Shown here piece after piece: positions 1 to 19,261 of a stretch of DNA of 64,000 bases. Source of the stretch: Terrimesophilobacter sp. Lineage in GTDB: Bacteria > Actinomycetota > Actinomycetes > Actinomycetales > Microbacteriaceae. A program made the position numbers and the translations under genes. The stretch is from the NCBI GenBank assembly GCA_039924285.1, contig JBDTBD010000003.1, positions 17,179-81,178 on the forward strand. Direction: 5' to 3'. The notes under the pieces are model-generated. The model ran no database searches, was not told where the DNA came from, and was given only the letters and a program-made list of their open reading frames with translations. The stretch's first letter is position 1. The number at the start of each line of letters is the position of its first letter.

Positions 1-1
1 G

Positions 2-3052: not shown

Positions 3053-4638
3053 TGGATGACCAGCCGGCGCGGGACACTCCCCGTGAACCCGTGACCGACG
3101 TCTCCGAAATCCAGGTCGCACAAGACATCGAGTCATCGAGTGAGCCAGCGTCACAGCCCGGCGTCGGAAACAGCGCCGCCGCGGGAGTTGTCTGGTTGAC
3201 GATTCAAAAATGGGCGATCCGAATATTCAGCTTCGCGACGATCGCGGTTCTTACTCGACTGCTCACACCCGCAGACTTCGGCACCGTAGCGGCAGCCTCA
3301 ACAGTGCTGCCGTTCTTCTTTTTACTCGCCGATCTCGGATTCGCAGCGTACATAGTTCAGGTCGATAGAACCGACCGGCGGATGCTGAGCACCGCGTTCT
3401 GGTTCTCGATGACGGCAGGGTTGCTGCTGTGCGGATGCTTGTTCCTCATTTCGCCACTGCTCGGCGTGATCTTCGCGGCATCCGGCGTCGTGCCCGTCTT
3501 GCAAGTATTGTCGCTCTGGGTCGTCGTCACCGCTATCGGCTCCGTCCCGATCGCCCTGTTGCGCCGCGACATGCGGTTCCGGGCGATCGCGGCACAGGGA
3601 GCGGCGGCGGCCATTGTCGCTCAAATCGTCGCAATCATCATGGCTTTCTCCGGCTTCGGTGTCTGGGCCCTCGTCGCACAGTCGCTCGTTGCCGCCGTCG
3701 TCGCAACCGCGCTGGCATGGTGGACCGTCAAGTGGCATCCAAGGGGGGAGTTTTCGAGAGTGGACTTCGTCCGGATGGCGCGCTTCGGCGGACAAGTACT
3801 GGGCGTTGAGTTCGTCGCAATGCTCCGCGCGTGGGGTGAGGCCGCCGTTATCTCGACAACCCTCGGCCTTACCGCACTCGGATACATGAGCATCGCGCAA
3901 CGCCTCGTACAAATCGTGCAAGACCTGACGGGAAGTGCGATCGTTCCCGTCACCAATGTCGCCTTCGCGAAGATCCGTGACTCTGCTTCGAGGTTGCGCG
4001 ATGCCTACCTGCGTGCGCTCAAAGTCACCTACGCCGCGCTGGCGCTGCCACTGACCGCCGTGGCCGTCGCCGCGCCCCTCATGATCCCTATCCTCTTCGG
4101 TCGCGGATGGGAGCAGAGCCACCAGATTGCCCAGGTCCTCGCGCTCGCCGGCACGCTATCGGTGGGCGCGTGGCTTGACCACGGCTTGTTCTATGGATTG
4201 GGCAGACCCGGCGCGTGGTTTGTCTATGCGCTGGTCATCGACATCCTGACTTTCGCCACCACGGTGTTCACCGTGCGCTGGGGACTCGTTGGCGTCGCTA
4301 TCGGCTTTCTTTGCGTCGCAACGCTCGCGACAATCGTCCGCTGGTTCCTAGTTGCTCGCGCCCTCCAAACAACCTCGCGGGTGGTCGCGGGACCGTTCGT
4401 CTACCTGATCACCGTCGTCGGATGCATGGGGGCAGTTGGTTGGGGCGTCAATCTCTGGACAGCGGCGCTTTCCCCCTGGCTTGCCCTCGTTCTGATCGGG
4501 CTCGTGATGCTCGTGGCGCACGCCGTAATCACCTTTCTCATGGCCCGGCCTGCCATCCACGAAGCGCTGAAAATCGTGAGCCGGTTCGGCATCAGCTCCC
4601 GCCTTCCGTTTCTCGCGCGGATGCGAGAGCAGTCGTGA
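3049..4638 (+). CDS. wzx: Wzx-type oligosaccharide flippase (WzxC/TuaB-like)
   Basis: About 12-14 hydrophobic segments, LTRLLTPADFG, DLGF, ALLRRDMRFR, GFGVWALV. Confidence 0.88.
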   Translation: MMDDQPARDTPREPVTDVSEIQVAQDIESSSEPASQPGVGNSAAAGVVWLTIQKWAIRIFSFATIAVLTRLLTPADFGTVAAASTVLPFFFLLADLGFAAYIVQVDRTDRRMLSTAFWFSMTAGLLLCGCLFLISPLLGVIFAASGVVPVLQVLSLWVVVTAIGSVPIALLRRDMRFRAIAAQGAAAAIVAQIVAIIMAFSGFGVWALVAQSLVAAVVATALAWWTVKWHPRGEFSRVDFVRMARFGGQVLGVEFVAMLRAWGEAAVISTTLGLTALGYMSIAQRLVQIVQDLTGSAIVPVTNVAFAKIRDSASRLRDAYLRALKVTYAALALPLTAVAVAAPLMIPILFGRGWEQSHQIAQVLALAGTLSVGAWLDHGLFYGLGRPGAWFVYALVIDILTFATTVFTVRWGLVGVAIGFLCVATLATIVRWFLVARALQTTSRVVAGPFVYLITVVGCMGAVGWGVNLWTAALSPWLALVLIGLVMLVAHAVITFLMARPAIHEALKIVSRFGISSRLPFLARMREQS

Positions 4639-6080
4639 CCGTCATGCAGGGGCTCGCCACTCGAGTGGGCGGACAGGTGAGTGCGCTGATTCTCGGCGCC
4701 ATCACCGGGGCAACCGGAATTCTGCCGCCACGTATTCGGTACGGGTACGTTCACCGAATCACCGGAGCGGTCCTGCGCAAGTCACTCCCGAAATTGCGAG
4801 CCCTCGGTGCCGCCACGGTATCGCAGCCCGCCGCTCAGGTCACGCAGACCGGCGAGCTCACGTGTGTCCTCGGGGTGGGCACGATGGACATCGGTGGTAT
4901 CGGCTCAGTCGTCGAGCTGCTGGCCACCTCGCTGCCGACGAGAGGGATCACGCCGGCGGTTGTTTGCGTTGGCGGCGGATCGCGTGCACAACGCATCCGT
5001 GATCTGGGTATTGAGGTGCGCTCCGTCTCCGACCACGCCTCGGCTCTGCGCGCGTTCACGGAGCTTTCCCCCGATGTCATCCAGCTCCACGGCGCACCGG
5101 CCTTTCTTGAAGCCGCTGCCGAAGAAAGTGGGGCACCTCTCGTGCCCGTGCTGCACAACACCGAGATCCACTACTCGCGCGCCCGTTGGCACAGACTCAC
5201 GCAAGTTTTCGGTCGGTCCTCCTCTGCGGTCGCCGTCAGCGAACTCGTGCGCACCTTCCACGCAGCTCACCTTCCGGCCATTCTTCACTCCCGAATCGCA
5301 GTGATCCCCAACGCCGCCCCGGGACTGCGTGCGCCCGCCCCGGAGCAGCGCAGTGTCGCTCGAAACCTGCTCGAGCAAACCGTCGGTGCCCACTTCCACG
5401 ACGATGTGGTCTTCGTATGCCTTGCACGGTACGACGCGCAGAAGAACATCGCAGGGACGGTGGCGTCGTTTCTCACCTGCGTCGCCACAGGCGTACCGGC
5501 GCGGCTTGTGATCGCAGGCGAACCATCTGACTGGGTCGAGTTCCGGCGATCCGACGCGATCCGACGTGGCAGCCGCGCTGCCGATCGGGTACACCTGCTC
5601 GCCACCTCGGACTCCCAGACGCTACTCGCCGCCGCCGATGCCTTCCTGCTCGACTCGTTTTTCGAGGGATGGCCAGTCGCCGCGACGGAAGCGTGGACCG
5701 CCGGGTTGCCGCTCATCCTGAGCGACGTCGGCGGGGCCCGAGAGCTCGTCGCGCGCGATCCCGCCCGTTCGGTGCTCATTGGCAACGGGTCGGGCGACGC
5801 AAGCGTGGTGAGCGACGCCCGCGTTGAACGCGCACGGCGGCGAGCGCGGCACCAACGGAACTCGTCTGAGCTCGGGGACGCCGTCCGGCGCGTCGTAGAA
5901 ACGGTGCGTCGCGAGCGCGTTGTGCCACTGGCGCAGCGTGAAACCTCCGACGGTGTCGCCGAAATGATCGACGCACACGCGCGCCTGCTGCGGGATGCGG
6001 CACGCAACAACCCCTCCGGGGTTCCGGCCCGATCGGGCTGGCTCCCGGAGGATGAATCAAAAGGGGTGGTCACGAAATGA
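4635..6080 (+). CDS. Glycosyltransferase family 4
   Basis: MDIGGIG, IPNA, CLARYDAQKN, DSFFEGWPVAATEA, SDVGG; start set at GTG 4635 overlapping the flippase stop. Confidence 0.88.
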   Translation: MTVMQGLATRVGGQVSALILGAITGATGILPPRIRYGYVHRITGAVLRKSLPKLRALGAATVSQPAAQVTQTGELTCVLGVGTMDIGGIGSVVELLATSLPTRGITPAVVCVGGGSRAQRIRDLGIEVRSVSDHASALRAFTELSPDVIQLHGAPAFLEAAAEESGAPLVPVLHNTEIHYSRARWHRLTQVFGRSSSAVAVSELVRTFHAAHLPAILHSRIAVIPNAAPGLRAPAPEQRSVARNLLEQTVGAHFHDDVVFVCLARYDAQKNIAGTVASFLTCVATGVPARLVIAGEPSDWVEFRRSDAIRRGSRAADRVHLLATSDSQTLLAAADAFLLDSFFEGWPVAATEAWTAGLPLILSDVGGARELVARDPARSVLIGNGSGDASVVSDARVERARRRARHQRNSSELGDAVRRVVETVRRERVVPLAQRETSDGVAEMIDAHARLLRDAARNNPSGVPARSGWLPEDESKGVVTK

Positions 6081-7288
6081 GCCGAGGCACGCAGCTACTC
6101 TGGAAGACGCGCCGAGCATTGGACGTCGGCCCGTTCGGGATCGCGCAACGGATCGCACAACGCGCCTACCGCAAGACGGGAGCGGCAGACCTGCAGTTCA
6201 ATCTCGATCTGGAGGATCTCCTCGTCGACATCCCCGACGAACTCCCCGTGCCCTCGACGCCCCCCGAGCCGGGCCGACCACTCCGGGTCGGATGGGTGAC
6301 CACACCACCGGCGGCAGGATCGGGTGGACACACCACGCTCTTTCGGATCGTCGAGGCACTCGAAGCAGCGGGACACCGTTGCGTGCTGTTCCTCTACGAC
6401 AAGCACGGTCTCGACGTCGCGCGCTTGACATCGGTCATCCGAGAGCACTGGCCGAGCATGCGTGCCGAAGTCCGGGACGCGCGTGCAGGGGTCGCGGATG
6501 TCGATGCGATCGTCGCGACATCCTGGGAGTCCGCGCACGTAATCGTCAAGTATGCGCGCTCGCCGATGCGTCGGCTCTACTTCATTCAAGACTACGAACC
6601 GTTCTTCTACGGGCACGGCGCCGAGTACACGTTCGCCGCGATGACCTACCAACTCCCGTTCCGGCGCATCGCGCTGGGTGAGATGCTCGGTGGGATGATC
6701 CTCGAGCAGACCGGGCTCGCCAGTGACGTGGTGCCGTTTGGCTGCGACTCGGCCGTATACCATCTGCCCGCCGCGGGGATTGCGCGCAGCGGAATCGTGT
6801 TCTATTGCCGGCCGGACTTCCCGCGACGCGGCTATCAGCTCGCCTGCATCGCGCTCATGGTGTTCCACCGTCGTCATCCCGATCAAGAGATCCACGTGTA
6901 TGGCGCGCCGCCGCGAGGACTCAGAATCCCCGTCACCTTCCACGGTCGAATGACGACGTCAGCGTTGAACGACCTGTACGGGCGGACGATAGCAGGACTC
7001 GCGATGTCGTTCACGAACATCACGCTCGTCGCGGAGGAAATGCTCGCCGCGGGCAATATCCCGATCGTCAACGACCTGCCGCTCGCCCGGCAGGTGCTGC
7101 CCAACCCCCACGTGCGCTGGGCAGAGCCGACCGCTGCCGCCCTCGCAGAAGCGCTCAGCGCCGCCGTGACCACCGACAACCTCGCCGGGCGCGCCGCGGC
7201 TGCTGCGGCATCCGTCGTAGGACGGTCATGGAAGCCGACCCAGGATGCCGTCGTCCGCATCATCGTCGAGGAGGTGATGGGCGCATGA
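6077..7288 (+). CDS. Glycosyltransferase, WsaF-like (GT4, possibly rhamnosyltransferase)
   Basis: GSGGHTT, IVATSWES, YFIQDYEPFFY, FYCRP..PRRG motifs. Confidence 0.8.
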   Translation: MSRGTQLLWKTRRALDVGPFGIAQRIAQRAYRKTGAADLQFNLDLEDLLVDIPDELPVPSTPPEPGRPLRVGWVTTPPAAGSGGHTTLFRIVEALEAAGHRCVLFLYDKHGLDVARLTSVIREHWPSMRAEVRDARAGVADVDAIVATSWESAHVIVKYARSPMRRLYFIQDYEPFFYGHGAEYTFAAMTYQLPFRRIALGEMLGGMILEQTGLASDVVPFGCDSAVYHLPAAGIARSGIVFYCRPDFPRRGYQLACIALMVFHRRHPDQEIHVYGAPPRGLRIPVTFHGRMTTSALNDLYGRTIAGLAMSFTNITLVAEEMLAAGNIPIVNDLPLARQVLPNPHVRWAEPTAAALAEALSAAVTTDNLAGRAAAAAASVVGRSWKPTQDAVVRIIVEEVMGA

Positions 7289-8643
7289 ACGAACCAACCA
7301 ACGCTCAGCCGCCGCACGTCGTGATCATCGTGCAGAACCTGCCGGTTCCACTGGATCGGCGGGTGTGGCTGGAGTGTCAGGCGCTGGTCACTCGGGGGTA
7401 TCGCGTCAGCGTAATCTGCCCGAAAGGGCCAGGCGACCCCGCCCGCCAGCACCTCGACGGGGTGGACATCTACAAGTATCGGCCCGCGCCCGAGGCAAAG
7501 GGGCTACCCGGCTTCGTATGGGAGTTCGCCTACAGCTGGGTTCGCACAGCGTGGTTGTCTCTCCAGGTGCGACGAGACCGGCGGTTCGACATCGTCCAGG
7601 CGTGCAATCCCCCGGACACCTATTGGCTGCTGGCGTTGCTGTGGCGGCCATTCGGCGTCAAATTCATCTTCGACCACCACGATCTGAACCCCGAACTCTT
7701 CATCTCCCGGTTTGGTGAGCCGCGAGGTGGCGTGAAATCCCTCGAGTACCGCGGCCTGCTCTGGCTTGAGCGGCGCACGTTCCGCACCGCGCACCGGGTC
7801 ATCTCGACGAACGAGTCATACAAAGCCATCGCGGTCAGGCGCGGACGCCGCCGGCCGAACGAGGTGACCGTGGTGCGCAGTGGGCCGGATACCCTGCAAA
7901 TGCGCCCGATCTACCCCGACCGCCCTCGGGCCGCCGACGAGATCAATCTGGTCTACCTCGGGATCATGGGCCCTCAGGATGGGGTCGATCAGGTGCTGCT
8001 CGTCGTCGACGAACTCGTACACCGCCGCGGGCGCGTCACCGTGACCGCTACCCTCCTCGGCTTCGGCGACTGCCTGGAGGCGCTCAAGACACAGTCCGCT
8101 GAACTCGGGCTCGACGATCATGTGATTTTCACCGGGCGTGTAGACCGTGTGGCGATCGCGGAACACCTCAGCCGCGCCGATATCGGCCTGTGCCCGGACC
8201 TCAAGACCCCCCTCAACGATCTGTCGACGATGAACAAGACGATGGAATACATGTCGTACGGACTTCCGGCCGTGTCTTTTGACCTAACTGAAACGCGCGT
8301 GTCTGGTGGAGACACCCTGCTCTACGTTCCCTCCGGTGACATCACAGCGTTCGCCGATGCCGTCGAAACGCTGATCGACGATCGGACACTTCGAGTGGAA
8401 CTCGGTAGAAAAGCTCGCACGCGAGTGGCCACACTCTTGGACTGGCGGCCACAGGCCGAGGCTTATGTCTCGGTGTACGACGGGCTGTCCGGATTCTCGC
8501 AAGCACCACCGGCCGTGCCAGCGACCGACGCATCGCCCGATCGAGACCCCCAGGGCCGACGCTATGTCAACCTCGAGGATCCTGAGGAGTTCGACCAATA
8601 CCTCCTCGAGCGTGGCGCAGGCGCGGAGCGGAGCACACGATGA
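7285..8643 (+). CDS. Glycosyltransferase family 4
   Basis: DRRVWLEC, QACNPPD, DHHDL, YLGIMGPQDG, NKTMEYM..GLP; ATG 7285 in ATGA overlap. Confidence 0.88.
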   Translation: MNEPTNAQPPHVVIIVQNLPVPLDRRVWLECQALVTRGYRVSVICPKGPGDPARQHLDGVDIYKYRPAPEAKGLPGFVWEFAYSWVRTAWLSLQVRRDRRFDIVQACNPPDTYWLLALLWRPFGVKFIFDHHDLNPELFISRFGEPRGGVKSLEYRGLLWLERRTFRTAHRVISTNESYKAIAVRRGRRRPNEVTVVRSGPDTLQMRPIYPDRPRAADEINLVYLGIMGPQDGVDQVLLVVDELVHRRGRVTVTATLLGFGDCLEALKTQSAELGLDDHVIFTGRVDRVAIAEHLSRADIGLCPDLKTPLNDLSTMNKTMEYMSYGLPAVSFDLTETRVSGGDTLLYVPSGDITAFADAVETLIDDRTLRVELGRKARTRVATLLDWRPQAEAYVSVYDGLSGFSQAPPAVPATDASPDRDPQGRRYVNLEDPEEFDQYLLERGAGAERSTR

Positions 8644-10208
8644 TACCGATCAGGACCAATTTCCATCATCTGCTCGCCCAGGCGGCCGCCACAGCACCCG
8701 ACGCCCCCGCGCTGACGTACCGCAGCACGACGGTCAGCTATGCGGACACCTGGAGAATGTCACGCGCTGCCGCTTCCCAACTGCTCGCCATAGGGCTGAC
8801 CCGTGGCGACCGGGTGGCAATCTATCTTGAGAAGCGCATCGAGACCGTTGCGGCGATCTTCGCCATCTCCACCGCCGGTGGCGTCTTTGTGACAATCAAC
8901 CACGTTCTCAAGGCAACGCAGGTCAGCCACATTCTCGGCGACAGCGGCGCGGGAGTGCTCATTACCTCGGCCGACCGACTCGCTCAGCTCGCTCTGGTAC
9001 TGCCGAATACCCGAGTCACACGCGTGATCGTTGTCGGTGACGTGGCACCCGACCCGACAGCGTCGTGGCAGGCCTACAGTTGGAACGACGGCCAAGCGGC
9101 CGCAGGAGATCCACACCCCTCGCCCGCGATCGACATCGACCCGGCTGCGATCCTGTACACCTCGGGTAGCACCGGCAAACCCAAGGGCGTGGTGTTGACC
9201 CACCGTAACCTGCTCGTCGGCGCCGAGAGCGTGAGCAGCTACCTGAAGAACACGAGCGACGACGTCATCCTCAGCGCCCTGCCGCTCAGCTTCGACGCCG
9301 GCCTGAGCCAGGTAACGACGGCCTTCTCCGTCGGGGCACACTGCATCCTCATGAACTACCTACTGCCACGGGAAGTGCCGAAGCTCTGCGAACAGTACGG
9401 CGTCACTGGCCTGACTTGCGTGCCGCCCCTCTGGCTGCAGATAGCTGACCTGAACTGGCCCGAAGCAGCCGCCGGTCGCTTGAGGTACTGGGCGAACACG
9501 GGTGGCCGAATGCCGCGCGCCACCCTCGACCGCCTCAGGAGCATCTTCACCGAAGCCGACGCCTACCTGATGTACGGTCTCACGGAGGCGTTCCGCTCCA
9601 CATACCTGGACCCAACCGAGGTCGACCGCCACCCAGACTCGATCGGCAAGGCCATCCCTAACGCCGAGATTCTCGTGCTGCGTGCAGACGGGACGCAGTG
9701 CGCGCCCGGCGAGGAGGGGGAACTCGTGCACCGCGGCGCCCTGGTGGCACTCGGCTACTGGAACGACCCGACCCGGACCGCCGAGCGGTTTCGCCCCGTG
9801 TGCCATCCGGGACAGAATTGGCGTGCTCCCGAATCCGCGGTGTGGTCGGGGGATACGGTGGTGGCCGACGCGGAAGGTTTCCTCTACTTCGTTGGCCGCA
9901 AAGACGAGATGATCAAGACGTCCGGCTATCGGGTGAGTCCGAGCGAGATCGAGGAAGCCGCGTACAACACCGGCCTCGTCCGCGACGCCGTCGCCATCGG
10001 CGTCGAAGACCCATCCCTCGGGCAGCGGATCGTTCTCGTAGCCACACCGACCGACACCGGACTCGACGTGGACGCACTAACCGCGGCGCTGAAGCAGATT
10101 TTGCCACTCTACATGGTCCCGTCCCGCATCGAGGTCCGCGACGAACTACGCCGTTCTCCCAACGGAAAATACGATCGAAATCTGCTCACGACCGAGGTGT
10201 CCCGATGA
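8640..10208 (+). CDS. AMP-forming acyl/aminoacyl ligase (similar to the 'exosortase A system-associated' acyl-CoA ligase)
   Basis: YTSGSTGKPKG, LPLSFDAG, YGLTEAFRS, SGD, GRKDEMIKTSGYRVSP, PNGK adenylation motifs. Confidence 0.9.
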   Translation: MIPIRTNFHHLLAQAAATAPDAPALTYRSTTVSYADTWRMSRAAASQLLAIGLTRGDRVAIYLEKRIETVAAIFAISTAGGVFVTINHVLKATQVSHILGDSGAGVLITSADRLAQLALVLPNTRVTRVIVVGDVAPDPTASWQAYSWNDGQAAAGDPHPSPAIDIDPAAILYTSGSTGKPKGVVLTHRNLLVGAESVSSYLKNTSDDVILSALPLSFDAGLSQVTTAFSVGAHCILMNYLLPREVPKLCEQYGVTGLTCVPPLWLQIADLNWPEAAAGRLRYWANTGGRMPRATLDRLRSIFTEADAYLMYGLTEAFRSTYLDPTEVDRHPDSIGKAIPNAEILVLRADGTQCAPGEEGELVHRGALVALGYWNDPTRTAERFRPVCHPGQNWRAPESAVWSGDTVVADAEGFLYFVGRKDEMIKTSGYRVSPSEIEEAAYNTGLVRDAVAIGVEDPSLGQRIVLVATPTDTGLDVDALTAALKQILPLYMVPSRIEVRDELRRSPNGKYDRNLLTTEVSR

Positions 10209-11431
10209 AACCACGCGAGCACCTCGCCGCCTTCGGCACGGCCGACGGCGAACTCAAAATCGGTGGGATGCCGCTCAGCAGACTTGCTGCTCGCGTCGGT
10301 TCGACCCCCTTCTTCGCCTACGATCGCGCACTACTCGACGAACGGGTCGATCGGTTGCGCTCACTCCTTCCGGAGCAACTGGAACTCAGCTTCGCGATGA
10401 AGGCGAACCCCATGCCCGCTATCGTGCAGCACCTGGCACACACGATCGACCGGTTCGACGTCGCCTCAGGACTGGAATTGCGAACAGTTCTCGACACCAC
10501 AATCCCCGCCGATAAGGTCAGCTTCGCCGGCCCCGGCAAGTCTTTTGCAGAAATCCGGCAGGCAGTCGCAGCCGGTATCACCATCGAAGTCGAATCCCCC
10601 ACGGAATTCGGCCGTGTAATCGTTGCGGGGAACGAACTCGGGCTTGCGCCGAACGTCGCCGTGCGGGTGAATCCCGACTTCGCTGTGAAGGGATCGGGAA
10701 TGCGGATGGGCGGCGGACCACAACAGTTCGGCATCGACGCGGAACAGGTGCCTACAGTTCTGCGCGAATACGCAACGGCGGGAGCGAACGTTCTCGGCTT
10801 CCACGTATTCGCCGGCTCGCAGAACTTGAACGCGGTGACCCTCGCCGAGTCGCAGCGCCACACCGTCGATCTCATCAGCGCTCTCGCAGAGCACCTGCCC
10901 GCACCGGTGCGCTACATCAATCTGGGTGGCGGCTTCGGCATCCCGTACGTCGAGAAGGACCGACCACTCGACCTGGAGGCGGTAGCACAAAACCTCCATG
11001 ACCTGGTGGACGGGCCAATTGCACAGCGGATGCCCGAGGCACGCCCGGTTATCGAACTCGGCCGCTACATCGTTGGGGAGTGCGGTATCTACGTCACACG
11101 GGTGCTCGACCGCAAGATTTCCCGCGGAAAGACGTTTTTGGTCGTCGACGGGGGGATGCACCACCAACTCGCGGCCTCGGGCAACTTCGGTCAGGCCATT
11201 CGCAGGAACTATCCCATCGTGGTCGGGAATCGAGCTGAGGTCACCCCCGAGGAGAGAGCCACGATCGTAGGGTGCCTGTGCACCCCGCTTGATCTACTCG
11301 GGGATGACGTCGAACTTCCCCGAGCCGACATCGACGATCTCATCGTGGTTTTCCAGGCAGGGGCGTACGGCCTGACCGCGAGCCCGACCGCATTCCTCGG
11401 ACATCCCGCGCCGGTGGAAGTTCTCGTCTAA
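10205..11431 (+). CDS. PLP-dependent fold-type III decarboxylase, BtrK-like (similar to the 'exosortase A system-associated' decarboxylase)
   Basis: TPFFAYD, FAMKANP (PLP Lys), DVAS..E, FAGPGK, HVFAGSQ, NLGGGFG, ELGRY, DGGMHH, GCLCTPLD, GAYG. Confidence 0.9.
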   Translation: MKPREHLAAFGTADGELKIGGMPLSRLAARVGSTPFFAYDRALLDERVDRLRSLLPEQLELSFAMKANPMPAIVQHLAHTIDRFDVASGLELRTVLDTTIPADKVSFAGPGKSFAEIRQAVAAGITIEVESPTEFGRVIVAGNELGLAPNVAVRVNPDFAVKGSGMRMGGGPQQFGIDAEQVPTVLREYATAGANVLGFHVFAGSQNLNAVTLAESQRHTVDLISALAEHLPAPVRYINLGGGFGIPYVEKDRPLDLEAVAQNLHDLVDGPIAQRMPEARPVIELGRYIVGECGIYVTRVLDRKISRGKTFLVVDGGMHHQLAASGNFGQAIRRNYPIVVGNRAEVTPEERATIVGCLCTPLDLLGDDVELPRADIDDLIVVFQAGAYGLTASPTAFLGHPAPVEVLV

Positions 11432-11448
11432 CCCAATAAGGAGCAAGC

Positions 11449-11706
11449 ATGACCAACACCATGGACGCCGTACGCACGGTGCTGATCGAGGCTCTCGAGT
11501 TGCACCAGAATCCGGAAGATTTGCACGAGGACACCCCCCTGTTCGGCGCCCTCCCCGAACTCGACTCGTTCGGCGTCGTACAGCTCGTGACCTCGATCGA
11601 AGATCGCTTCGACATCACCGTTGACGACGACGAGTTCGGCGCCGAGATATTCGAGACGGTAGGCACCCTCACCGGGTTCGTCGATGCCAAGCTCGCCGCA
11701 GCTTAG
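11449..11706 (+). CDS. Acyl carrier protein
   Basis: 85 aa, acidic, LPELDSFG phosphopantetheine Ser, IEDRFDI, FETVGTL; RBS AAGGAG. Confidence 0.92.
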   Translation: MTNTMDAVRTVLIEALELHQNPEDLHEDTPLFGALPELDSFGVVQLVTSIEDRFDITVDDDEFGAEIFETVGTLTGFVDAKLAAA

Positions 11707-13447
11707 ATCGAACGGGCCGCACGGAGCCCTTCCCGGCTTTCTCGCGGTCGGACGCGACGATCCGACCCTCGAAACAGTGTTCGGGACTCAGGCGGGAGTC
11801 ACGACGACTCTGTGCGGTCCTGCGAAACTGGCGTCCTGGAACCTCGTGTCACTCACATCACCGATGCCGACGCTCACCCTTTCCCGCGTCACGAGAACCG
11901 AGAACGGCGAAGTATCTTCCGAAGAGATCGCCAACGGAATGCGTGACGATCCGACGGCGTTGACGCGCCTGCTTCCGCCTTTCGCTGCGGTGCGCGGAGA
12001 CGCGCAGGGGGTGACGATGGTCGCCGACTCGATGGGATTCCGGCAGCTGTATCACAGCACTCCGGACTCCACAGACCCGCCGGTGCTTTCGACGTCGGCC
12101 TTATTCGCGGGCTGGGCGCGGCGCGCCGAATTCGACCACACTGCGATCGCTGTTCAATCCTTGCTCGGGTGGCAGCTCGGCCAACGCACGTTGTTCAGCG
12201 GAGTCGACAAACTCGCCCCTGACGCCGTCGCCCATCTCGATGCCGAGGGCGTGCGAGTGAGCGCGCCGGAACGGAAACACGAGACAGAAATCCCCCTCAA
12301 AGAGGCAGTCTCGATGACCGCCGAGTTGCTTCGTGCCTCGCTGAACGCCCTGTTGGACGACCACCCCGACGCGGTGCTGCAACTCACCGGTGGGCAAGAT
12401 TCTCGCCTCCTCCTCAGCGCCATCCCGCTCGCCCGTCGGCACGGACTCCGCGCTATGACGCTGGGTGTCCCAGGAAGCGGGGATGTCATCGTCGCAAAGC
12501 GACTCGCGGAACAATACGGACTGCGGCACGAAGTCCACGGCCTTGCTGCTCTCGACGGTTTGAGTGCCATGGACGCCTGGGATCTCACTCGAGAAGCCGC
12601 GATGCGCCTCGACGGCATGTCGGACCCGATCGCTCTTGCCGCGCTCACGGTCGCCGAAAGCAGCTTTGACCAGGGTGTGCGGATCTCGGGACTCGGTGGA
12701 GAGGTCGCCCGCGGCTTCTACTACGTCGGCACGGTGCGCGAGCGGTCGTTCACACGGAAGGATGCCGGGCAGCTCGCCGCCTGGCGGATGTTCGTCAACG
12801 AGGCCGTCGAACCGGAACTCCTCGACCCGACGTTCTCGGCCTGGGCCCGTGCGACGGCCGACGATGAGGTCGTGTCTGCCATGACCGAAACGGGCGTTGG
12901 TTGGTTTCGGGCCACCGACGAACTTTACCTGCGGCACCGCATGCAACGATGGGCAGGCGTCACCGACACCGCGGTCAGTTCCCAGCGGATCGTCATCAAC
13001 CCGATGCTTTCACAGGACTTTCTCAGCATCGCTTCACGGCTGGCCCCAAAAGACAAAGCGCACTCGCGGTTTCTTGCCCTGCTGCAGATGGAACTCGACC
13101 CGGAACTTGGCCTAATTCCCCTGGAGGGGCGTCCAGCCCCGGTCGACATGGCGCACCCGAGCCCTTGGGCGTCGGCGGCCGGCGCCTTCCACACCGGGCG
13201 CCGCCTGGTCAAAAAAGTTGTCCAACGCGTACAGCGCGGAAATCGTGCTCCAGCCGGGGGATCCTTGCTCGCGGAGAAGGTCGTGGAACACTGGCGTGAG
13301 CACCCGGATTTCCTACTATCTGCGGAGCTCTCGACCTTCATTCGGCCGGACTGGACCGAGCATATGCTCAACGGGCGACTCACGCCTCGACCCAGTTCGA
13401 TCGCCTTCTTGACGAACCTCATAGTGGCCAGCCAACGGACATTCTGA
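11684..13447 (+). CDS. Asparagine synthetase-like ATP-dependent amide ligase (degenerate Ntn domain, no Cys1)
   Basis: ADSMGFRQLY, RTLFSGV, PP-loop LTGGQDSR, ISGLGGEVARGFY; start uncertain. Confidence 0.8.
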   Translation: MPSSPQLRSNGPHGALPGFLAVGRDDPTLETVFGTQAGVTTTLCGPAKLASWNLVSLTSPMPTLTLSRVTRTENGEVSSEEIANGMRDDPTALTRLLPPFAAVRGDAQGVTMVADSMGFRQLYHSTPDSTDPPVLSTSALFAGWARRAEFDHTAIAVQSLLGWQLGQRTLFSGVDKLAPDAVAHLDAEGVRVSAPERKHETEIPLKEAVSMTAELLRASLNALLDDHPDAVLQLTGGQDSRLLLSAIPLARRHGLRAMTLGVPGSGDVIVAKRLAEQYGLRHEVHGLAALDGLSAMDAWDLTREAAMRLDGMSDPIALAALTVAESSFDQGVRISGLGGEVARGFYYVGTVRERSFTRKDAGQLAAWRMFVNEAVEPELLDPTFSAWARATADDEVVSAMTETGVGWFRATDELYLRHRMQRWAGVTDTAVSSQRIVINPMLSQDFLSIASRLAPKDKAHSRFLALLQMELDPELGLIPLEGRPAPVDMAHPSPWASAAGAFHTGRRLVKKVVQRVQRGNRAPAGGSLLAEKVVEHWREHPDFLLSAELSTFIRPDWTEHMLNGRLTPRPSSIAFLTNLIVASQRTF

Positions 13448-13532
13448 AGTACCGATGAACCTAACGCGAGGTGATACGACTAAAACTCTCGGCTTGACGC
13501 GCCACACGTCGTCCGCTCTAATGGGAAAGCAA

Positions 13533-13555
13533 ACGTACCCCACCACGGGGTACGT
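13533..13555. promoter_or_regulatory. Perfect 9-bp stem hairpin in the leader of the DUF4082 gene
   Basis: ACGTACCCC-accac-GGGGTACGT; a TTGACG -35-like hexamer lies about 40 bp upstream. Confidence 0.45.
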
Positions 13556-13665
13556 CCTCCGCGCCCAGCCGGTACGACGGAGTGAGCGACAACTCGAAAT
13601 TCGGGACGAGTTAGGAAGCCATATTGAACTACCCTCAAAGCGTATCACGTCATCGTGGAACGAAA

Positions 13666-15186
13666 ATGAAAACCAAGTTTGTGCTCCGCGTCGGCAGCAT
13701 TGCGGCGGCGTTTGCGATGCTGCTGGCGTTGGTCGTTGCGAACGGTCCGTGGACCGCGGCTCCAGCCAGTGCAGCAGACAGTACGATGCTGGGCAGCTCG
13801 GCTCCGGCCGGACTTGTCTCTCACGCTGACACCAACGGGGTCGAGGTCGGAACGCGGTTTAGCGCGCGCACCGACGGAACGGCCACCGGGATGCGATTCT
13901 GGAAGGGCCAGAACGCCGCGAGCCCCCATCAAGGAACCCTCTGGAGCGCGCAGGGAATGAAGCTCGCTCATGCGACCTTCGCGAAGGAGACCCGTTCCGG
14001 TTGGCAGACCGCTAAGTTCGACCGGTCGGTCACACTGAAAGCGGGCCAGAGGTACGTGGTCTCGTACTACGCCACGGGTGGCCGGTATGCGGCAACGTAC
14101 AACTTCGCCGGAGAATCGAAGTCTCCCAACTTGGCAATCACGACGGGATCCGGCGTCTTCAAATACGGGTCGGAGTCGCTGTTCCCCACCGATACTTACC
14201 GCAACAGTTCATACTGGGTCGACCTGGTCTTCTCCCCGAGCGCAGCAGGCGCTTCCACCGACTACCAGAGGCCGATAACCACGCCGACGACCGCACCGAC
14301 ACCGGCACCGACAACCACGCCGACGCCAGCTCCGATAACCACTCCGAAGCCGGCTCCGACGACCACACCCGCGCCAGCGCCAGCGCCTGCGCCTGCGCCT
14401 GCGCCCACTAAGGGTTTCCCGTCGGCCGCCACAACAGGAGTTCCGACCGGAACCGCCCTCTCCGCCTACACCGGACCGTGCAGGATTACCACACCGAACA
14501 CCGTCATCAACGCCAAGCAGGTGAACTGCTCACTGGAGATCGTCGCGCAGGGCGTGACGATCACCCGGTCGCTCATCAACGGAACTGTCTACACCGATGC
14601 GGACGGAAGCGGAACCTTCACGATCAGCGACAGCAAGATCGTGATGGGTAACGAGGCGGGAACCGGGATTGGCGATGCCAGGTTCACGGCCACTCGCGTG
14701 GAAGTGACCGGCGGTAACCGATCCGTGAATTGCTACCTCGACTGCACCATCCAGAACTCTTACGTTCACGGTCAGTTCCGCGATAGCAGCGGGCGCACGC
14801 ACGAATCCGGAATTCGGATGGGGTCAGGCTCCGTGATCCGCGGCAACACCATTGCCTGCGACGCACCCGACGTGGCTCCGGACGCTGGATGCTCTGCGGC
14901 CCTGACCGGCTATGGTGACTTCGCGGTCGTCCAGAACAACACCATCGATGGGAACCAGTTCATCGGGGGATCCGGCGGCTACTGCTCGTACGGCGGCTCG
15001 ACACCCGGTAAGCCGTTCTCAAACGGGACCAAGAACATCAGGTTCACGAACAACGTCTGGCAACGTGGGGAGTCCGGTAAGTGCGGCTTCTACGGCCCGA
15101 TCACCTCATTCGACTCCGAGGCCCCGGGCAACGTGTGGAGCAACAACACGTGGGATAACGGAACCGCTGTTCAAGCCGCCGACTAA
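13666..15186 (+). CDS. Secreted protein: signal peptide, DUF4082 domain, Pro/Thr linker and right-handed beta-helix domain
   Basis: MKTK+hydrophobic+APASA signal; GVEVGTRF..GMRFWK..LWS..GWQ..YVVSY..YWVDLVF (DUF4082); (TP/AP)n linker; G/N-rich beta-helix-like repeats. Confidence 0.8.
   Translation: MKTKFVLRVGSIAAAFAMLLALVVANGPWTAAPASAADSTMLGSSAPAGLVSHADTNGVEVGTRFSARTDGTATGMRFWKGQNAASPHQGTLWSAQGMKLAHATFAKETRSGWQTAKFDRSVTLKAGQRYVVSYYATGGRYAATYNFAGESKSPNLAITTGSGVFKYGSESLFPTDTYRNSSYWVDLVFSPSAAGASTDYQRPITTPTTAPTPAPTTTPTPAPITTPKPAPTTTPAPAPAPAPAPAPTKGFPSAATTGVPTGTALSAYTGPCRITTPNTVINAKQVNCSLEIVAQGVTITRSLINGTVYTDADGSGTFTISDSKIVMGNEAGTGIGDARFTATRVEVTGGNRSVNCYLDCTIQNSYVHGQFRDSSGRTHESGIRMGSGSVIRGNTIACDAPDVAPDAGCSAALTGYGDFAVVQNNTIDGNQFIGGSGGYCSYGGSTPGKPFSNGTKNIRFTNNVWQRGESGKCGFYGPITSFDSEAPGNVWSNNTWDNGTAVQAAD
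14273..14410 (+). repeat. Pro/Thr/Ala low-complexity linker repeats (PTTTPAPAPAP)
   Basis: Degenerate 6- and 24-bp coding repeats. Confidence 0.85.
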
Positions 15187-15207
15187 ATCAGATTCGCCAA
15201 CTCAATG

Positions 15208-15250
15208 AGGTAGGCGTCGTGATTGCCGCTAGGCATCGCGACGCCTACCT
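15208..15250. terminator. Long stem-loop between convergent genes (likely bidirectional terminator)
   Basis: AGGTAGGCGTCGTGATTGCC-gcta-GGCATCGCGACGCCTACCT. Confidence 0.75.
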
Positions 15251-15266
15251 TCCGTTGGTTAACGCT

Positions 15267-16133
15267 CTACCACGTGAGCAAGGTCAATTCGCTGTAGAGG
15301 TAGTCCAGAGCGCCGGCGGACACGTTCTTGCTGCGGAACATCTTCGCCCGCGGGGTTCGGAGATCAACACCGAACGCCGGGACGAAGCCGAGCACGCGAC
15401 GCTCCGCGAGCGTCGCCAACGCTCCGTGCCGAAGGAGCAAATGCGACGCAATCTGTGGCCAAGCAGAGCGTAGGAGACCCTGGCTGCCCCCGACATACAA
15501 CGGTGAGACAAAGAGCGGGAGCCGTTTGCGGCGATCCTTGCGGACAACGAGATAGCTGTATTCCTCACCCGCAATCGCCACGATATGGCGGGCGGCAGGG
15601 GCAGCGCGGTGATCACGGTAGACCTGTGCGTCCCTCCCTCGGAGGATCCGCTCAACGACATCGGGATCATCCGACACCGTGAGACCTCGTCGCGGGATGG
15701 CCGGCAGATTGGGGGTCACACGTGTGGCCGTGTCGAGCAAGCTGAAGCCGAGGCGCTCATTCAGCGCCACCACGTTCCCGCTCGGCGAAAGGTCCGTGAA
15801 CTCGAATCCGCGCTGCGCCAGGATCGCGCGCACGAGCCGGAAGCTGTGGGCACGGTAACTCTCACGCACACAGAATGCCGCGAGGTTGCAGAACTTCCAC
15901 TGTTCGCCGTCGACGTCGCGTTCGGAATAGACCGCGACGTACACCCCGACGATCGTAGAATCCTCGACGAGCTGGAACCCGTGGTTGGGCGCCTCGACGC
16001 CCCAAGGAGGAAGGAGGAGCGCGCTCCACGCTCCGAGAGTGACCCGCGGGTTCAATTGATCGTGAAGGAATCTCGCAACCGCGCCAGCGTCCTCATTCCT
16101 GATCGGTCGTATCTCGATGTTTCCGCGACCCAT
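15267..16133 (-). CDS. GNAT-fold-like acyltransferase (hypothetical)
   Basis: IRPIRNED, IVGVY, FCNLAAFCVRESYR, TDLSPS..V..LNERLGF resemble GNAT motifs A/B. Confidence 0.6.
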   Translation of the reverse strand: MGRGNIEIRPIRNEDAGAVARFLHDQLNPRVTLGAWSALLLPPWGVEAPNHGFQLVEDSTIVGVYVAVYSERDVDGEQWKFCNLAAFCVRESYRAHSFRLVRAILAQRGFEFTDLSPSGNVVALNERLGFSLLDTATRVTPNLPAIPRRGLTVSDDPDVVERILRGRDAQVYRDHRAAPAARHIVAIAGEEYSYLVVRKDRRKRLPLFVSPLYVGGSQGLLRSAWPQIASHLLLRHGALATLAERRVLGFVPAFGVDLRTPRAKMFRSKNVSAGALDYLYSELTLLTW

Positions 16134-16235: not shown

Positions 16236-17111
16236 ATGCCGAGCGTCGTCATCGCCGCGCACAACGAGGAAAACGTGATCGGCCGCTGCCTCTCCGCGCT
16301 GCTCGTCCAACAGATATCCGCACCTCTCGAGGTCGTCGTCAGTGCCAATGGCTGCACCGATCGCACGGTTGCCGTTGCGACGCGCCCCGGTGTCACTGTG
16401 ATCGATTCTCCGGAGCTAGGAAAGGCCGCGGCCTTGAACGCCGGCGACGAAGTTGCAACCGAATTCCCGAGGGTCTACCTGGACGCCGATATCGTTGTGC
16501 CTCCCGGCGGTCTCACCGCCGTGGTCGAACGCTTCGCGAAGACACCGCACCCGCTCGCCGTGGTGCCTCGGCGCCGAGTGAACACAGCGGGACGACCCTG
16601 GCCGGTGCGAGCATACCTTTCCATTAATGAGCTCCTGCCTGCGTTCCGAGGCGGATTGTTTGGACGTGGGATGATCGCGCTGTCCGAGCAGGGCCGCAAA
16701 CGGTTCGGTGCGTTTCCGACGATGATCGCGGACGATCTGTTCATCGACTCGCAGTTCTCCGACGCGGAAAAGGCCGAAGCAAGCGACGTTGAGGTTATTG
16801 TCGAGGCCCCGTTCACGACACGGGGGCTGATACGTCGGCTGGTTCGGGTGCGTCGCGGCAACGCCGAGCTGCGGGCGGCGGCCACGGCGGGACTGGTCGA
16901 AGTACGAGTACGTACGGCCGACCGCTGGGCCTGGTTGCGCGACGTCGTGAGGCTCAACCCACGGTTGATCCCCGCTGTCGTCCCCTATGTATCGATCACA
17001 CTGATCGCTGGTTTTCTGGCGCGGCGCAGGGTGAAGACGGCTCCCGGGTGGGGACGCGATGAGAGTACCCGTGGGGAGCAATCATCGGAGACGAACGGAG
17101 CGTCAGTATGA
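16236..17111 (+). CDS. Glycosyltransferase family 2
   Basis: SVVIAAHNEE, NGCTDRT, GKAAALNAG, YLDADI, ADDL; RBS AAAGGA. Confidence 0.92.
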   Translation: MPSVVIAAHNEENVIGRCLSALLVQQISAPLEVVVSANGCTDRTVAVATRPGVTVIDSPELGKAAALNAGDEVATEFPRVYLDADIVVPPGGLTAVVERFAKTPHPLAVVPRRRVNTAGRPWPVRAYLSINELLPAFRGGLFGRGMIALSEQGRKRFGAFPTMIADDLFIDSQFSDAEKAEASDVEVIVEAPFTTRGLIRRLVRVRRGNAELRAAATAGLVEVRVRTADRWAWLRDVVRLNPRLIPAVVPYVSITLIAGFLARRRVKTAPGWGRDESTRGEQSSETNGASV

Positions 17112-17761
17112 TCATCAACCTGTGCTTCCACGGCATCGGAACTATCACTCGGGAACGGGAGCCTGGCGAGTCCCGGTACTGGGTTACCGAAGACTGCTTT
17201 CGCCGCATCCTGGACGAGGTGCACGACAGTTCCAACGTCAGGTTGAGCTTCGACGACGGTAATCGGTCCGACGTCTCCGTTGTGCTCCCCGCTTTGCGGG
17301 AGCGTGCATTGCACGGCTCTTTCTTCCCTCTTGCCGGCCGCCTGGGCGACGCCGCGAGCCTCTCCCCCTCGGATCTGCGAGAACTGAGGAAGGACGGAAT
17401 GGCCATCGGAACTCACGGCTGGACCCACACCCCGTGGCGCGGACTGAGCAAAAAGGAAGCGCACCGGGAGCTGGCGGAGGCCCGCGCGATCCTCGCCGAA
17501 GCAAGCGGAGGACTGATCGAGGACGCGGCTTTGCCGCTTGGGCGGTATGACCGCCAACTTCTGGGGCGTCTGAGGCATATCGGATATCGGACGGTATACA
17601 CGAGCGATCGGCTCCCCGCGCGCTCCACCGCGTGGTTGCAGGCACGGTACAGCGTTACTGCGCAAGACACGGTGGAATCGGTTCGATCGATGATCAGGCG
17701 CCACCCCAGCGTGCGAGATGCCCGCAACCTGATGGCGAGCACGGTTAAGCGGATCCGGTGA
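17108..17761 (+). CDS. Polysaccharide deacetylase (CE4/NodB)
   Basis: CFHGI, LSFDDG, IGTHGWTH, ALPLG. Confidence 0.9.
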   Translation: MIINLCFHGIGTITREREPGESRYWVTEDCFRRILDEVHDSSNVRLSFDDGNRSDVSVVLPALRERALHGSFFPLAGRLGDAASLSPSDLRELRKDGMAIGTHGWTHTPWRGLSKKEAHRELAEARAILAEASGGLIEDAALPLGRYDRQLLGRLRHIGYRTVYTSDRLPARSTAWLQARYSVTAQDTVESVRSMIRRHPSVRDARNLMASTVKRIR

Positions 17762-17906
17762 CCAGCTGCCAACGAGTTGAAACCAATCTCAGTTCCGTGC
17801 TGTCGCGTATGTCATGTCGTCCCTTAGTATTTGTCGAGTTGCCGTCGGCGTTGAGGTCGAGTGCTTACACTGGGTGCCTGGGAAGGCCGGAGAGAGAGGA
17901 TCGCCC

Positions 17907-18611
17907 ATGACCATGAGCGAAATCGCGTCCGCCATGCTCCGGCGCTGGTACGTTCTCCTCGGGCTCCTCGCGTGCGCCGTGCTCGTCACGGTGATGCTGG
18001 CTCATGACGGTGGCATCTACACCACGAGGACCGTCGTTTCATTCCTGCGTCCCGCTGGCACGAGCCTGTCACTCGGCAATGGTACGAACGATCCAAGTGT
18101 CATCGCGTTCGCGGGGTCCGTCGTTCTGGGTATCAACAACGGCCGACCTCCCGCCAGCTACTCGATGGAGGACGCTCCCTATTACGGCGCCGGAATCCGT
18201 CAGGGCGCGCTCGTCGAACTGTCCAACTCGGGGAACCAATGGGTGTCGTCGTTCGACAAGGCGGAAATCCAGATCCAGATCGTCGGGCGCACCTCCAACT
18301 GGGTGCAGTCGAAGCAGGATGAACTTGTCAGCAAGGTCTTGAGCATTGCCGAATCCCAGCAGGCAGCCATGGCGATCTCTCCGAGCAAGCGCATCACCGC
18401 CTCCGTCGTTCCACTCACCACCCATATCGACTATGTCTCCGCCTCCCGAAGCAGCCAGCTGGCCGCCGGTGCCGCGATGCTCACCGCGGCGATGATCATC
18501 GGAGCCTGGGGTTCCGTCACCGCCGACCGCTTGCTTTCGAGACGACGGCTGTTAGCCGACACGTCGAAATCACCTCCAATCGATCACACTCTGGAAGGAT
18601 CACTATCGTGA
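17907..18611 (+). CDS. Wzz/PCP-like membrane protein 1
   Basis: MLRRWY followed by a TM helix, extracellular region and C-terminal TM helix. Confidence 0.6.
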   Translation: MTMSEIASAMLRRWYVLLGLLACAVLVTVMLAHDGGIYTTRTVVSFLRPAGTSLSLGNGTNDPSVIAFAGSVVLGINNGRPPASYSMEDAPYYGAGIRQGALVELSNSGNQWVSSFDKAEIQIQIVGRTSNWVQSKQDELVSKVLSIAESQQAAMAISPSKRITASVVPLTTHIDYVSASRSSQLAAGAAMLTAAMIIGAWGSVTADRLLSRRRLLADTSKSPPIDHTLEGSLS

Positions 18612-19261
18612 AGTTCGCCGACACACTTCGTGGACTCTTGCGACGGTGGTACATCGTTGTCCCCGGGATTCTCGTCACCACCGCGATAGTGCTCGGCGCC
18701 TGGTTCACGATCCCCACGGGATATGAACGCTCCGCGACGCAGCTCCTGATCCCCGGTGCAAACAGCATGCCGGCAGGGGCGAACCCCTATCTTTTCCTCG
18801 GCGGCCTGTCACCCGCCGCCGACGTTCTGGTGCGAGCAATCGGGTCGCAAAACGTTCTTGATGAAGTGGTCAAAGAACACCCAGGGGTCAAGATCGAGAT
18901 TTCACGGGACACATCAACAGCGGGACCGATCATTCTCATTACGGTGAACGCAAGCAGCAACGACTCCGCAAAGGAGGTCCTTGGGCTGCTCGTCGACCGC
19001 ACGACGACAGTACTCGAAGACTTACAGCGAGTGGAAAACATCCCTAGGGCGAACCGCATCACCGTGATTCCCATCACCATTGACAGGCAAGGCCAGATTC
19101 AGCAGCGAAACCGACTCCTTGGAACCGCCGGTGCCGGAATCGCCGGCCTCATCCTCACGTTGCTCACCGCCGGCTTTGTCGAAGGCGCCAGTCAGCAGAG
19201 ACGGCGGCGCAGCAGGCCGTCAAACAGCGACGACAATGAAACCGACGCCGAGCCCGCATGA
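18608..19261 (+). CDS. Wzz/PCP-like membrane protein 2
   Basis: LLRRWY+TM, P.Y..SATQLL, NPYL, C-terminal TM. Confidence 0.65.
   Translation: MKFADTLRGLLRRWYIVVPGILVTTAIVLGAWFTIPTGYERSATQLLIPGANSMPAGANPYLFLGGLSPAADVLVRAIGSQNVLDEVVKEHPGVKIEISRDTSTAGPIILITVNASSNDSAKEVLGLLVDRTTTVLEDLQRVENIPRANRITVIPITIDRQGQIQQRNRLLGTAGAGIAGLILTLLTAGFVEGASQQRRRRSRPSNSDDNETDAEPA

Follow-up and report, generated by a model that had tools for sequence, protein, structure and literature searches.

A carrier-protein-dependent aminoacyl decoration module predicted in a Wzx/Wzy polysaccharide locus of Terrimesophilobacter

The 64,000-nucleotide stretch of Terrimesophilobacter sp. DNA analysed here (assembly GCA_039924285.1, contig JBDTBD010000003.1, positions 17,179 to 81,178; hereafter the window) contains three consecutive genes for an ANL adenylating ligase, a fold-III pyridoxal 5'-phosphate (PLP) decarboxylase and a stand-alone acyl carrier protein (ACP), which we call the trio, followed by an asparagine-synthetase-like (AsnB-like) amide ligase and, on the opposite strand, by a tandem GNAT acyltransferase (Table 1). 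A preliminary description of this DNA had proposed that an amino dicarboxylic acid is loaded onto the ACP, decarboxylated there and transferred to a sugar. The five genes on which it was built are all in place, recognised by family matches and, in the case of the GNAT, by predicted fold; gene families in the window were called by Pfam profile search, and NCBIfam was run on the ten open reading frames (ORFs) between 4215 and 17111. The translational coupling described between glycosyltransferase, ligase and decarboxylase is real, with start and stop codons overlapping as ATGA at 7285, 8640 and 10205 in the window sequence, and a gap of 17 nt separates the decarboxylase from the ACP. The surrounding locus is a Wzx/Wzy polysaccharide cluster producing at least two amino sugars, in agreement with the earlier assignment: besides the flippase and the Wzy_C protein in the window, the same contig carries upstream of it a Bac_transf priming transferase, a Gfo/Idh/MocA oxidoreductase, an epimerase/dehydratase and a second DegT aminotransferase.

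The ligase matches TIGR03098 (ligase_PEP_1) over positions 2-516 of the 517-position profile, scoring 722.2 bits against a curated cut-off of 592.35, while the fatty-acid-ligase models of NCBIfam reach 200-300 bits, all far under their own cut-offs, and the amino-acid adenylation model TIGR01733 reaches 254 bits, under its cut-off of 317. The core motifs A3-A10 typical of nonribosomal peptide synthetases (NRPS) are present: the Asp of the A4 motif 'SFDAG' coincides in alignment with the FD in either A domain of LgrA, A10 reads 'NGKYDR', and the A4 Asp and A10 Lys are invariant in 90 sequences. The best single-domain matches in the PDB are a peptide synthetase (201 bits), VinN (3wvn, 181 bits) and FadD5 (180 bits); the 261 bits scored by LgrA are the sum of two domains. 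Judged by its sequence, the enzyme resembles those that adenylate amino acids rather than fatty-acid ligases, and the family match, the A4 Asp, the A8-A10 motifs and the presence of VinN among the best single-domain matches sustain the role that the preliminary description had given it. Placing the pocket residues by motif on GrsA numbering yields the code D-A-S-P-A-T-M-R-S-K, with position 278 uncertain by one residue; D235, M322, R330, S331 and K517 are invariant in 90 ligases of 44-82% identity, including those linked to the exosortase XrtA, and the conserved Asp, Arg and Lys alone were used for interpretation. The invariant amino-binding Asp and the pocket Arg would fit an amino acid that keeps a second, free carboxylate, which is what the decarboxylase that follows needs. 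The DltA and DltC models of NCBIfam also gave weak matches in the window.

The decarboxylase matches TIGR03099 (dCO2ase_PEP1) with 558.5 bits over profile positions 2-398 of 398 (cut-off 478.45). Its closest solved relative is BtrK (7ru7; E 5e-73, 250 bits, residues 27-407), against 149 bits for the best diaminopimelate (DAP) decarboxylase among the PDB matches, and the PLP-binding Lys66 (AMKAN), the GGG loop, E284/R287, C359 and Y388 are invariant in 96 decarboxylases; the likeness to BtrK noted before thus stands, with the catalytic residues intact. Comparison with its relatives leads us to predict that the enzyme acts on an ACP-tethered amino acid. We considered and rejected a housekeeping LysA: the protein scores 230 bits on TIGR01048 (lysA), below the cut-off of 297.9, and complete carriers encode a separate true lysA of 420-486 bits (Leifsonia sp. 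McL0618, Mycolicibacterium iranicum and Bradyrhizobium sp. STM 3562; genomes G029, G061 and G062). Since the true lysA occurs there alongside the paralogue, the decarboxylase is not the enzyme of the lysine pathway; the metagenome-assembled genome (MAG) of the window, which is 72% complete, has no second lysA. A ligase-decarboxylase fusion, suggested by open frames of 880-889 aa in genomes G097 and G310, was also rejected for G097, where these are two genes in different frames. All 86 ACP sequences compared share D39-S40 of the 'DSF' motif.

With one genome scanned per species, the decarboxylase has at least 439 relatives, which bear the NCBI name 'exosortase A system-associated'; locus counts refer to the best 80 of them (67-85% identity), drawn from Microbacteriaceae, Jiangella, Microlunatus, Mycobacterium, Micromonospora, Nakamurella and others, as well as from Bradyrhizobium sp. 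STM 3562. Decarboxylase and ACP are present in all 80 loci and the ligase, adjoining the decarboxylase, in 77. The trio is contiguous across phyla at 44-85% identity, except for a few loci with an insertion between decarboxylase and ACP (L035, L056, L067 and L081). Its most conserved neighbour is the GT4 gene at 7285, directly upstream of the ligase in 55/80 loci with a median identity of 78%, and further into the glycan locus the GT2 at 20658 recurs in 54 and the genes between 17814 and 21602 in 52-57. In Mycobacterium, Micromonospora, Nakamurella, Georgenia and Bradyrhizobium the cassette is reduced to GNAT, ligase, decarboxylase and ACP.

The commonest neighbour of the trio is the minus-strand gene, for which neither Pfam nor NCBIfam gives a match and which had previously been called GNAT-like. 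Its homologues form 1049 clusters, most of which carry the name 'hypothetical protein', and a few homologues match Acetyltransf_1, _7 or _9 at E 0.005-0.05. An AlphaFold2 model built from an alignment of 28 homologues (pLDDT 92.6) and compared by Foldseek and VIA-align identifies it, by predicted fold, as a tandem GNAT (Foldseek E about 1e-8; VIA-align Z 13-14.6 over 250-266 residues), the matching structures being N-myristoyltransferases (NMTs), fungal and clostridial glucosamine N-acetyltransferases and Eis-like proteins. FemX, NodA and HlyC/ApxC-type transferases are absent from its top 50 fold matches, although they may still be related to it. In 61 of the 80 loci the tandem GNAT is no more than 10 kb from the trio, and in 29 it is the immediate neighbour, either after the ACP on the opposite strand (19 loci) or directly upstream of the ligase on the same strand (10 loci); two further loci that seemed to lack it have it slightly outside the fetched flank. 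A member of the family scoring 210 bits (G410:C69:5378-6211) also occurs in a genome without a TIGR03099 match at E 1e-120, so the link between the GNAT family and the trio is not a strict one.

Divergent from the GNAT gene in the window runs a GT2 gene, followed by a CE4 deacetylase gene whose product retains the 'FDDG' and 'HGWTH' motifs and has no signal peptide. The deacetylase is found in 43/80 loci and the GT2 in 38, one or the other flanks the GNAT in 31, and in Mycolicibacterium, too, there is a deacetylase upstream of the cassette; by sequence, both proteins find only weak, uninformative matches in the PDB. The placement of this pair beside the GNAT suggests a route in which a sugar is deacetylated and then reacylated.

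Table 1. Genes of the polysaccharide locus, in window coordinates
Feature	Position	Strand	Basis
PglD-like hexapeptide acetyltransferase	1-675	+	
DegT aminotransferase	633-1823	+	
GT4	1820-3052	+	
Wzx-type flippase	3049-4638	+	
GT4	4635-6080	+	
WsaF-like glycosyltransferase	6077-7288	+	
GT4 glycosyltransferase	7285-8643	+	Glyco_trans_1_4 + Glyco_trans_4_4
ANL adenylating ligase	8640-10208	+	TIGR03098; AMP-binding + AMP-binding_C
Fold-III PLP decarboxylase, BtrK type	10205-11431	+	TIGR03099; Orn_Arg_deC_N + Orn_DAP_Arg_deC
Stand-alone ACP	11449-11706	+	PP-binding, E 8.5e-9
AsnB-like ATP-dependent amide ligase	11684-13447	+	Asn_synthase; alternative starts 11777 or 11846
Secreted DUF4082 protein	13666-15186	+	DUF4082, E 3.5e-42
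Tandem GNAT acyltransferase	15267-16133	-	No Pfam/NCBIfam match; predicted fold
GT2, C-terminal hydrophobic segment	16236-17111	+	Glycos_transf_2
Cytoplasmic CE4 (NodB-type) polysaccharide deacetylase	17108-17761	+	Polysacc_deac_1, E 4e-19, 69 bits
Wzz-like two-TM proteins, two	17814-18611 and 18608-19261	+	
Wzy_C polymerase/ligase-type protein	19258-20652	+	
Conserved GT2	20658-21602	+	

What is the relation of these genes to the exosortase systems after which their families are named? The preliminary description had seen neither exosortase nor PEP-CTERM substrate in the window, and the genome-wide picture is the same: PF09721, TIGR03109 and TIGR02595 have no match in the 72%-complete MAG or in the complete Leifsonia relative, nor is there an exosortase or PEP-CTERM signal in the carriers G061, G062, G063 and G065, while as a positive control the short PEP-CTERM model matched two of three XrtA genomes. 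The hydrolase 1 model TIGR03100 likewise has no match in the ten ORFs searched with NCBIfam, and the remaining locus genes, searched with Pfam only, are without an alpha/beta-hydrolase domain. Among 301 sampled Pseudomonadota, TIGR03099 exceeds its cut-off in 15. Twelve of these have XrtA above cut-off, nearly always within 10-45 kb of it on one contig, and lack an adjacent tandem GNAT; one (G310) has a sub-cut-off XrtA match only; and the two without any XrtA match (Bradyrhizobium and G233) carry a tandem GNAT directly upstream of the ligase. A branch supported at 98% (SH-aLRT) separates the decarboxylases of the GNAT type, these two proteobacterial ones included, from those of the XrtA type.

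The two sets are alike in that both pass the curated cut-offs of ligase and decarboxylase, in the overlap of these genes, in an ACP nearby and in the invariant D..MRSK pocket. They differ in that the XrtA set possesses XrtA, PEP-CTERM proteins, hydrolase 1 and an Acetyltransf_6 GNAT (the last assigned in locus L108 only), whereas the present locus has the tandem GNAT; the ACP is divergent there and co-directional and downstream here; and the XrtA decarboxylases, at 45-53% identity to this type, form a separate clade. In XrtA-type loci the ACP lies divergently upstream together with hydrolase 1 (TIGR03100; L106 and L108), followed by the XrtA export and chain-length genes. The Acetyltransf_6 gene of the XrtA-type locus of genome G205 (L108:6914-7954, minus strand) encodes a 346-aa FemAB-like GNAT, divergent from the ligase and adjoining ACP and hydrolase 1; it has no NCBIfam model match at E 1e-10, and the corresponding ORF of L106 has no match. 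A homology between this protein and the tandem GNAT was considered and dropped, since hhalign gives a probability of 0.6%, with no relation detected. As the transferase partners differ by context, the trio can be seen as a unit that makes the donor, and 'exosortase-associated' names one of its contexts only.

The module looks rare, patchy and horizontally mobile. In an even sample of 401 Actinomycetota, TIGR03099 exceeds its cut-off in this genome and one other only, the GNAT family being present in both, where it lies next to the trio, and in 1 of the other 399; one of 60 close relatives carries the module. In the decarboxylase tree, obtained by a quick search with SH-aLRT support, Jiangella, Propionicimonas and a Microthrixaceae MAG nest within Microbacteriaceae. 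Two observations from the same survey deserve mention in their own right. A 19-kb contig labelled Stenotrophomonas maltophilia P13 (JACEFY010000009.1, locus L060) holds the full Microbacterium-type locus and gene order with a decarboxylase that nests among Microbacterium sequences, and it is probably a contamination of that assembly. A TIGR03099-like decarboxylase of 405-428 bits, below the cut-off, is present in 16 of the 31 sampled genomes of family f39 (e.g. G405:C1:1668043-1669230), which probably represents a distinct subfamily in another context.

What, then, could the module do? We consider that the chances stand slightly in favour of a carrier-protein-dependent aminoacyl decoration of a Wzx/Wzy surface glycan, effected by ligase, decarboxylase and GNAT on a hexosamine. 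The ligase would adenylate an amino dicarboxylic acid and thioesterify it onto the holo-ACP, most likely L-aspartate through its beta-carboxyl, or else L-glutamate through its gamma-carboxyl. A decarboxylase of the BtrK/VinO type would then remove the free alpha-carboxyl on the carrier, leaving beta-alanyl-S-ACP (or 4-aminobutyryl-S-ACP), and the tandem GNAT would pass the omega-aminoacyl group on from this carrier to a sugar with a free amine. The acceptor would probably be a hexosamine that the GT2 adds and whose amine the cytoplasmic CE4 deacetylase exposes; alternatively, one of the two DegT aminotransferases would supply a nucleotide amino sugar in this role. Flipped and polymerised by Wzx and Wzy, the modified repeat would give a cationic or zwitterionic polysaccharide, with the AsnB-like ligase as an optional extra amide-forming step. 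A PLP alpha-decarboxylase requires a free alpha-amino and a free alpha-carboxyl group; with both free, the thioester would have to run through the side-chain carboxyl, so that the product would be beta-alanyl-ACP from Asp or 4-aminobutyryl (GABA)-ACP from Glu. The preliminary interpretation followed the same scheme, and all of its computationally testable parts held. The sequences themselves establish the gene families, their conserved catalytic residues and gene order, and the independence from exosortase, while the amino acid, its decarboxylation on the carrier, the role of the GNAT as transferase and the sugar acceptor are what we infer.

Carrier-bound chemistry of this kind is familiar from antibiotic pathways. 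BtrJ, BtrI and BtrK load and decarboxylate glutamate on a carrier in butirosin biosynthesis. In vicenistatin biosynthesis the equivalent steps are performed by VinN, which loads 3-methylaspartate on the stand-alone ACP VinL, and by the PLP enzyme VinO, which decarboxylates the ACP-bound acid; the fluvirucin enzyme FlvN carries out the same loading with aspartate (PMC11284099). The Vin and Flv (FlvN/L/O) systems resemble the present one in combining an ANL enzyme, a stand-alone ACP and a PLP decarboxylase that acts on the ACP-bound acid (PMC11284099), VinO being likened to the decarboxylase of the window by description, not by sequence. They differ in that their product reaches a polyketide synthase by way of a further aminoacylation, by VinM, and of the acyltransferase VinK, whereas here there is no polyketide synthase and a tandem GNAT instead. 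For the ANL ligase, VinN/VinL/VinO and FlvN are thus the better-matched precedent, alongside BtrK. By analogy we slightly favour Asp over Glu as the loaded acid, because Asp-type substrates are those of the ANL precedents. GABA thioesters lactamise readily, and the butirosin pathway protects its own with a second ligation; GABA-ACP would be prone to the same fate in the minimal cassette, which has no second ligase, and this too favours Asp.

Other known systems share parts of the proposed logic. In butirosin biosynthesis BtrK is the closest solved relative of our decarboxylase and the product ends as an amide on an amino sugar, but BtrJ is an ATP-grasp enzyme rather than an ANL ligase, BtrH is not a GNAT, a gamma-glutamyl protecting group is added and removed, and the target is an aminoglycoside, not a polymer. 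The order of events that we propose, in which a GT2 installs an N-acetylhexosamine, a deacetylase frees the amine and an acyltransferase gives it a new acyl group taken from a dedicated acyl-ACP, would recall NodC/NodB/NodA with NodF, and LpxC/LpxD; this is an analogy only, as the GNAT has no sequence relation to NodA or LpxD and the donor there is a fatty acyl group. DltABCD and AlmEFG likewise use an adenylating enzyme and a small carrier to put an amino acid, and with it positive charge, on a surface glycopolymer, but they lack a decarboxylase and form esters through MBOAT/DltD or LpxL-type transfer, where we predict a cytoplasmic GNAT and an amide.

Several observations count against the proposed decoration of a hexosamine. 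The pocket code of the ligase matches no known code and so does not settle the choice between Asp, Glu and another acid. The R/QxxGxG motif of the GNAT is degenerate, reading R-A-H-S-L-R at the beta4-alpha3 junction with the Arg alone invariant, and while this makes a donor other than acyl-CoA plausible from the sequence, it fits such a donor without proving one. The GT2 and the deacetylase are absent from many loci. Among five checked genomes whose loci lacked the GNAT, three have no homologue of it anywhere, and we accordingly rejected the GNAT as a universal partner of the trio; in two of these three a hexapeptide-repeat acyltransferase lies by the ACP or the AsnB-like gene and may be an alternative transferase. 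Genes of this type, which belong to the LpxA/LpxD-like fold family, were recorded at L074:11666-12310 and L053:13280-13828. The cassette also occurs outside glycan loci, between mfd and a citrate transporter in Georgenia and beside a C39-ABC/HlyD exporter in Bradyrhizobium. Finally, the literature that we searched yielded no chemistry for the XrtA-associated set or for the present module, and no account of the module being used in polysaccharides.

The Bradyrhizobium cassette bears on the question of the acceptor. In Bradyrhizobium sp. STM 3562 the four genes are followed by HlyD, a C39-peptidase ABC exporter and a 1864-aa ORF (L085:11570-21140), which hints at a secreted protein or peptide as the possible recipient of the acyl group in this organism. 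Extended to the whole family, this would mean that the same omega-aminoacyl-ACP donor serves a GNAT that acylates a secreted protein or peptide, in the manner of NMTs or of HlyC-type toxin acyltransferases, which draw on acyl-ACP, or a small molecule. We regard this as unlikely, even though NMTs and Eis, whose targets are amines of proteins or peptides, are among the top fold matches of the GNAT, secreted DUF4082 or beta-helix proteins often occur in the neighbourhood, and the Georgenia cassette has no glycan genes nearby. The cassette is mostly embedded in, and translationally coupled to, glycosyltransferase and Wzx/Wzy genes, glucosamine N-acetyltransferases score as high as NMTs among the fold matches, and the GT2/CE4 pair by the GNAT points to a hexosamine amine.

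The identity of the donor could be doubted as well. The ligase might activate the alpha-carboxyl of meso-diaminopimelate (or of another amino diacid such as 2-aminoadipate or 3-methylaspartate), the distal end then being trimmed to give, for example, lysyl-ACP; the decarboxylase does belong to the DAP decarboxylase superfamily, as its score on the lysA model reflects, and the conserved pocket Asp and Arg of the ligase would also suit a long amino diacid. This substrate seems to us quite improbable, given that BtrK, which handles a side-chain-tethered Glu, scores far above every DAP decarboxylase, that no glutamate mutase was found in the 15 proteobacterial carriers searched, and that VinN and FlvN use Asp-type substrates. 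At the extreme, a fatty-acyl-CoA ligase, a LysA paralogue and a fatty-acid ACP might be neighbours by chance and bring about at most a lipidation of the glycan. The scores of the long-chain-fatty-acid-CoA ligase models, the FadD5 match and the lack of another lysA in the MAG could be read in this way, but those models stay far below their cut-offs while TIGR03098 exceeds its own, the ligase has the NRPS-type FD, A8, A9 and A10 motifs, the MAG is incomplete whereas complete carriers have both the true lysA and the paralogue, and the trio holds together across phyla. We therefore give such a coincidence very little credence and retain the aminoacyl decoration of a hexosamine as the preferred reading.

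The AsnB-like ligase is an accessory outside the conserved core: it occurs in 29/80 loci, nearly all from Microbacteriaceae and always directly 3' of the ACP. Of the five genes whose co-occurrence had been anticipated, the trio is conserved and the GNAT is its frequent companion, so their membership in the module is borne out and that of the AsnB-like ligase in its core is not; where the preliminary description had left the installation of the group to the GNAT, the amide ligase or both, the GNAT is the likelier transferase. The AsnB-like protein scores 22.2 bits on Asn_synthase, barely over the cut-off of 21, with weak matches to macrolactam-cyclase and asn_synth models, and falls among the Asn_synthase clusters of the Atlas. 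It has a PP-loop, TGGQDS, at residues 235-240 and no glutaminase nucleophile Cys after any of the candidate starts 11684, 11777 and 11846, and it may add a second amide.

Between this gene and the GNAT lies the DUF4082 gene, which the earlier gene list, otherwise accurate for its five genes, had passed over. The protein has a signal-peptide-like N-terminus, a Pro/Thr linker and a C-terminal repeat domain, is found in 44/80 loci (a relative in L056 adds a weak Beta_helix match) and may process the glycan. Upstream of the window, between the priming transferase and the sugar-precursor genes, a 1694-aa protein carries four DUF4082 domains together with DMFA2_C and Big_5/Big_7 domains (L111:8846-13930), and DUF4082 or beta-helix proteins are found near the cassette in many loci, those of Mycolicibacterium and Bradyrhizobium included. 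The Wzz-like assignment in Table 1 is based on transmembrane (TM) segments flanking the window proteins and on a homologue in L053 with a weak Wzz match. A 488-aa ORF without Pfam match at 21669-23135 on the minus strand has counterparts of 41-58% identity in 22 of the 80 loci.

The families of the ligase and the decarboxylase are automatically annotated and have stood in the catalogues for some two decades under the sole label 'exosortase A system-associated', and the logic of on-carrier decarboxylation is known from antibiotic pathways. New here are a testable function for these long-unexplained families and a partner family of tandem GNATs: the locus and its 80 relatives reveal that the families operate without an exosortase, paired with a defined, foldable transferase and a deacetylase. 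We tentatively suggest, with somewhat less than even confidence, that the trio is a mobile, context-independent generator of omega-aminoacyl-ACP which works with varied acyltransferases, and which together with GT2 and CE4 swaps the N-acetyl group of a hexosamine for beta-alanyl or GABA. In Actinomycetota and some rhizobia its acyltransferase partner would be the hitherto unnamed tandem-GNAT family; a few genomes would use a hexapeptide transferase instead, and XrtA systems the Acetyltransf_6 GNAT with hydrolases. Four or five soluble proteins would suffice to test the whole pathway.

If the decoration of a hexosamine is confirmed, it would to our knowledge be the first described case of carrier-protein-dependent, amide-linked aminoacylation of Wzx/Wzy polysaccharides, and it would provide the first functional handle on the XrtA-linked version of the system. 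It would also imply amine-bearing zwitterionic surface glycans in many actinobacteria of soil and cold habitats, such as Cryobacterium, Leifsonia, Microbacterium, Agromyces, Jiangella and some mycobacteria, as well as in some rhizobia. Charge motifs of this kind influence adhesion, desiccation and freeze tolerance, interactions with phages and antimicrobial peptides, and immune recognition.

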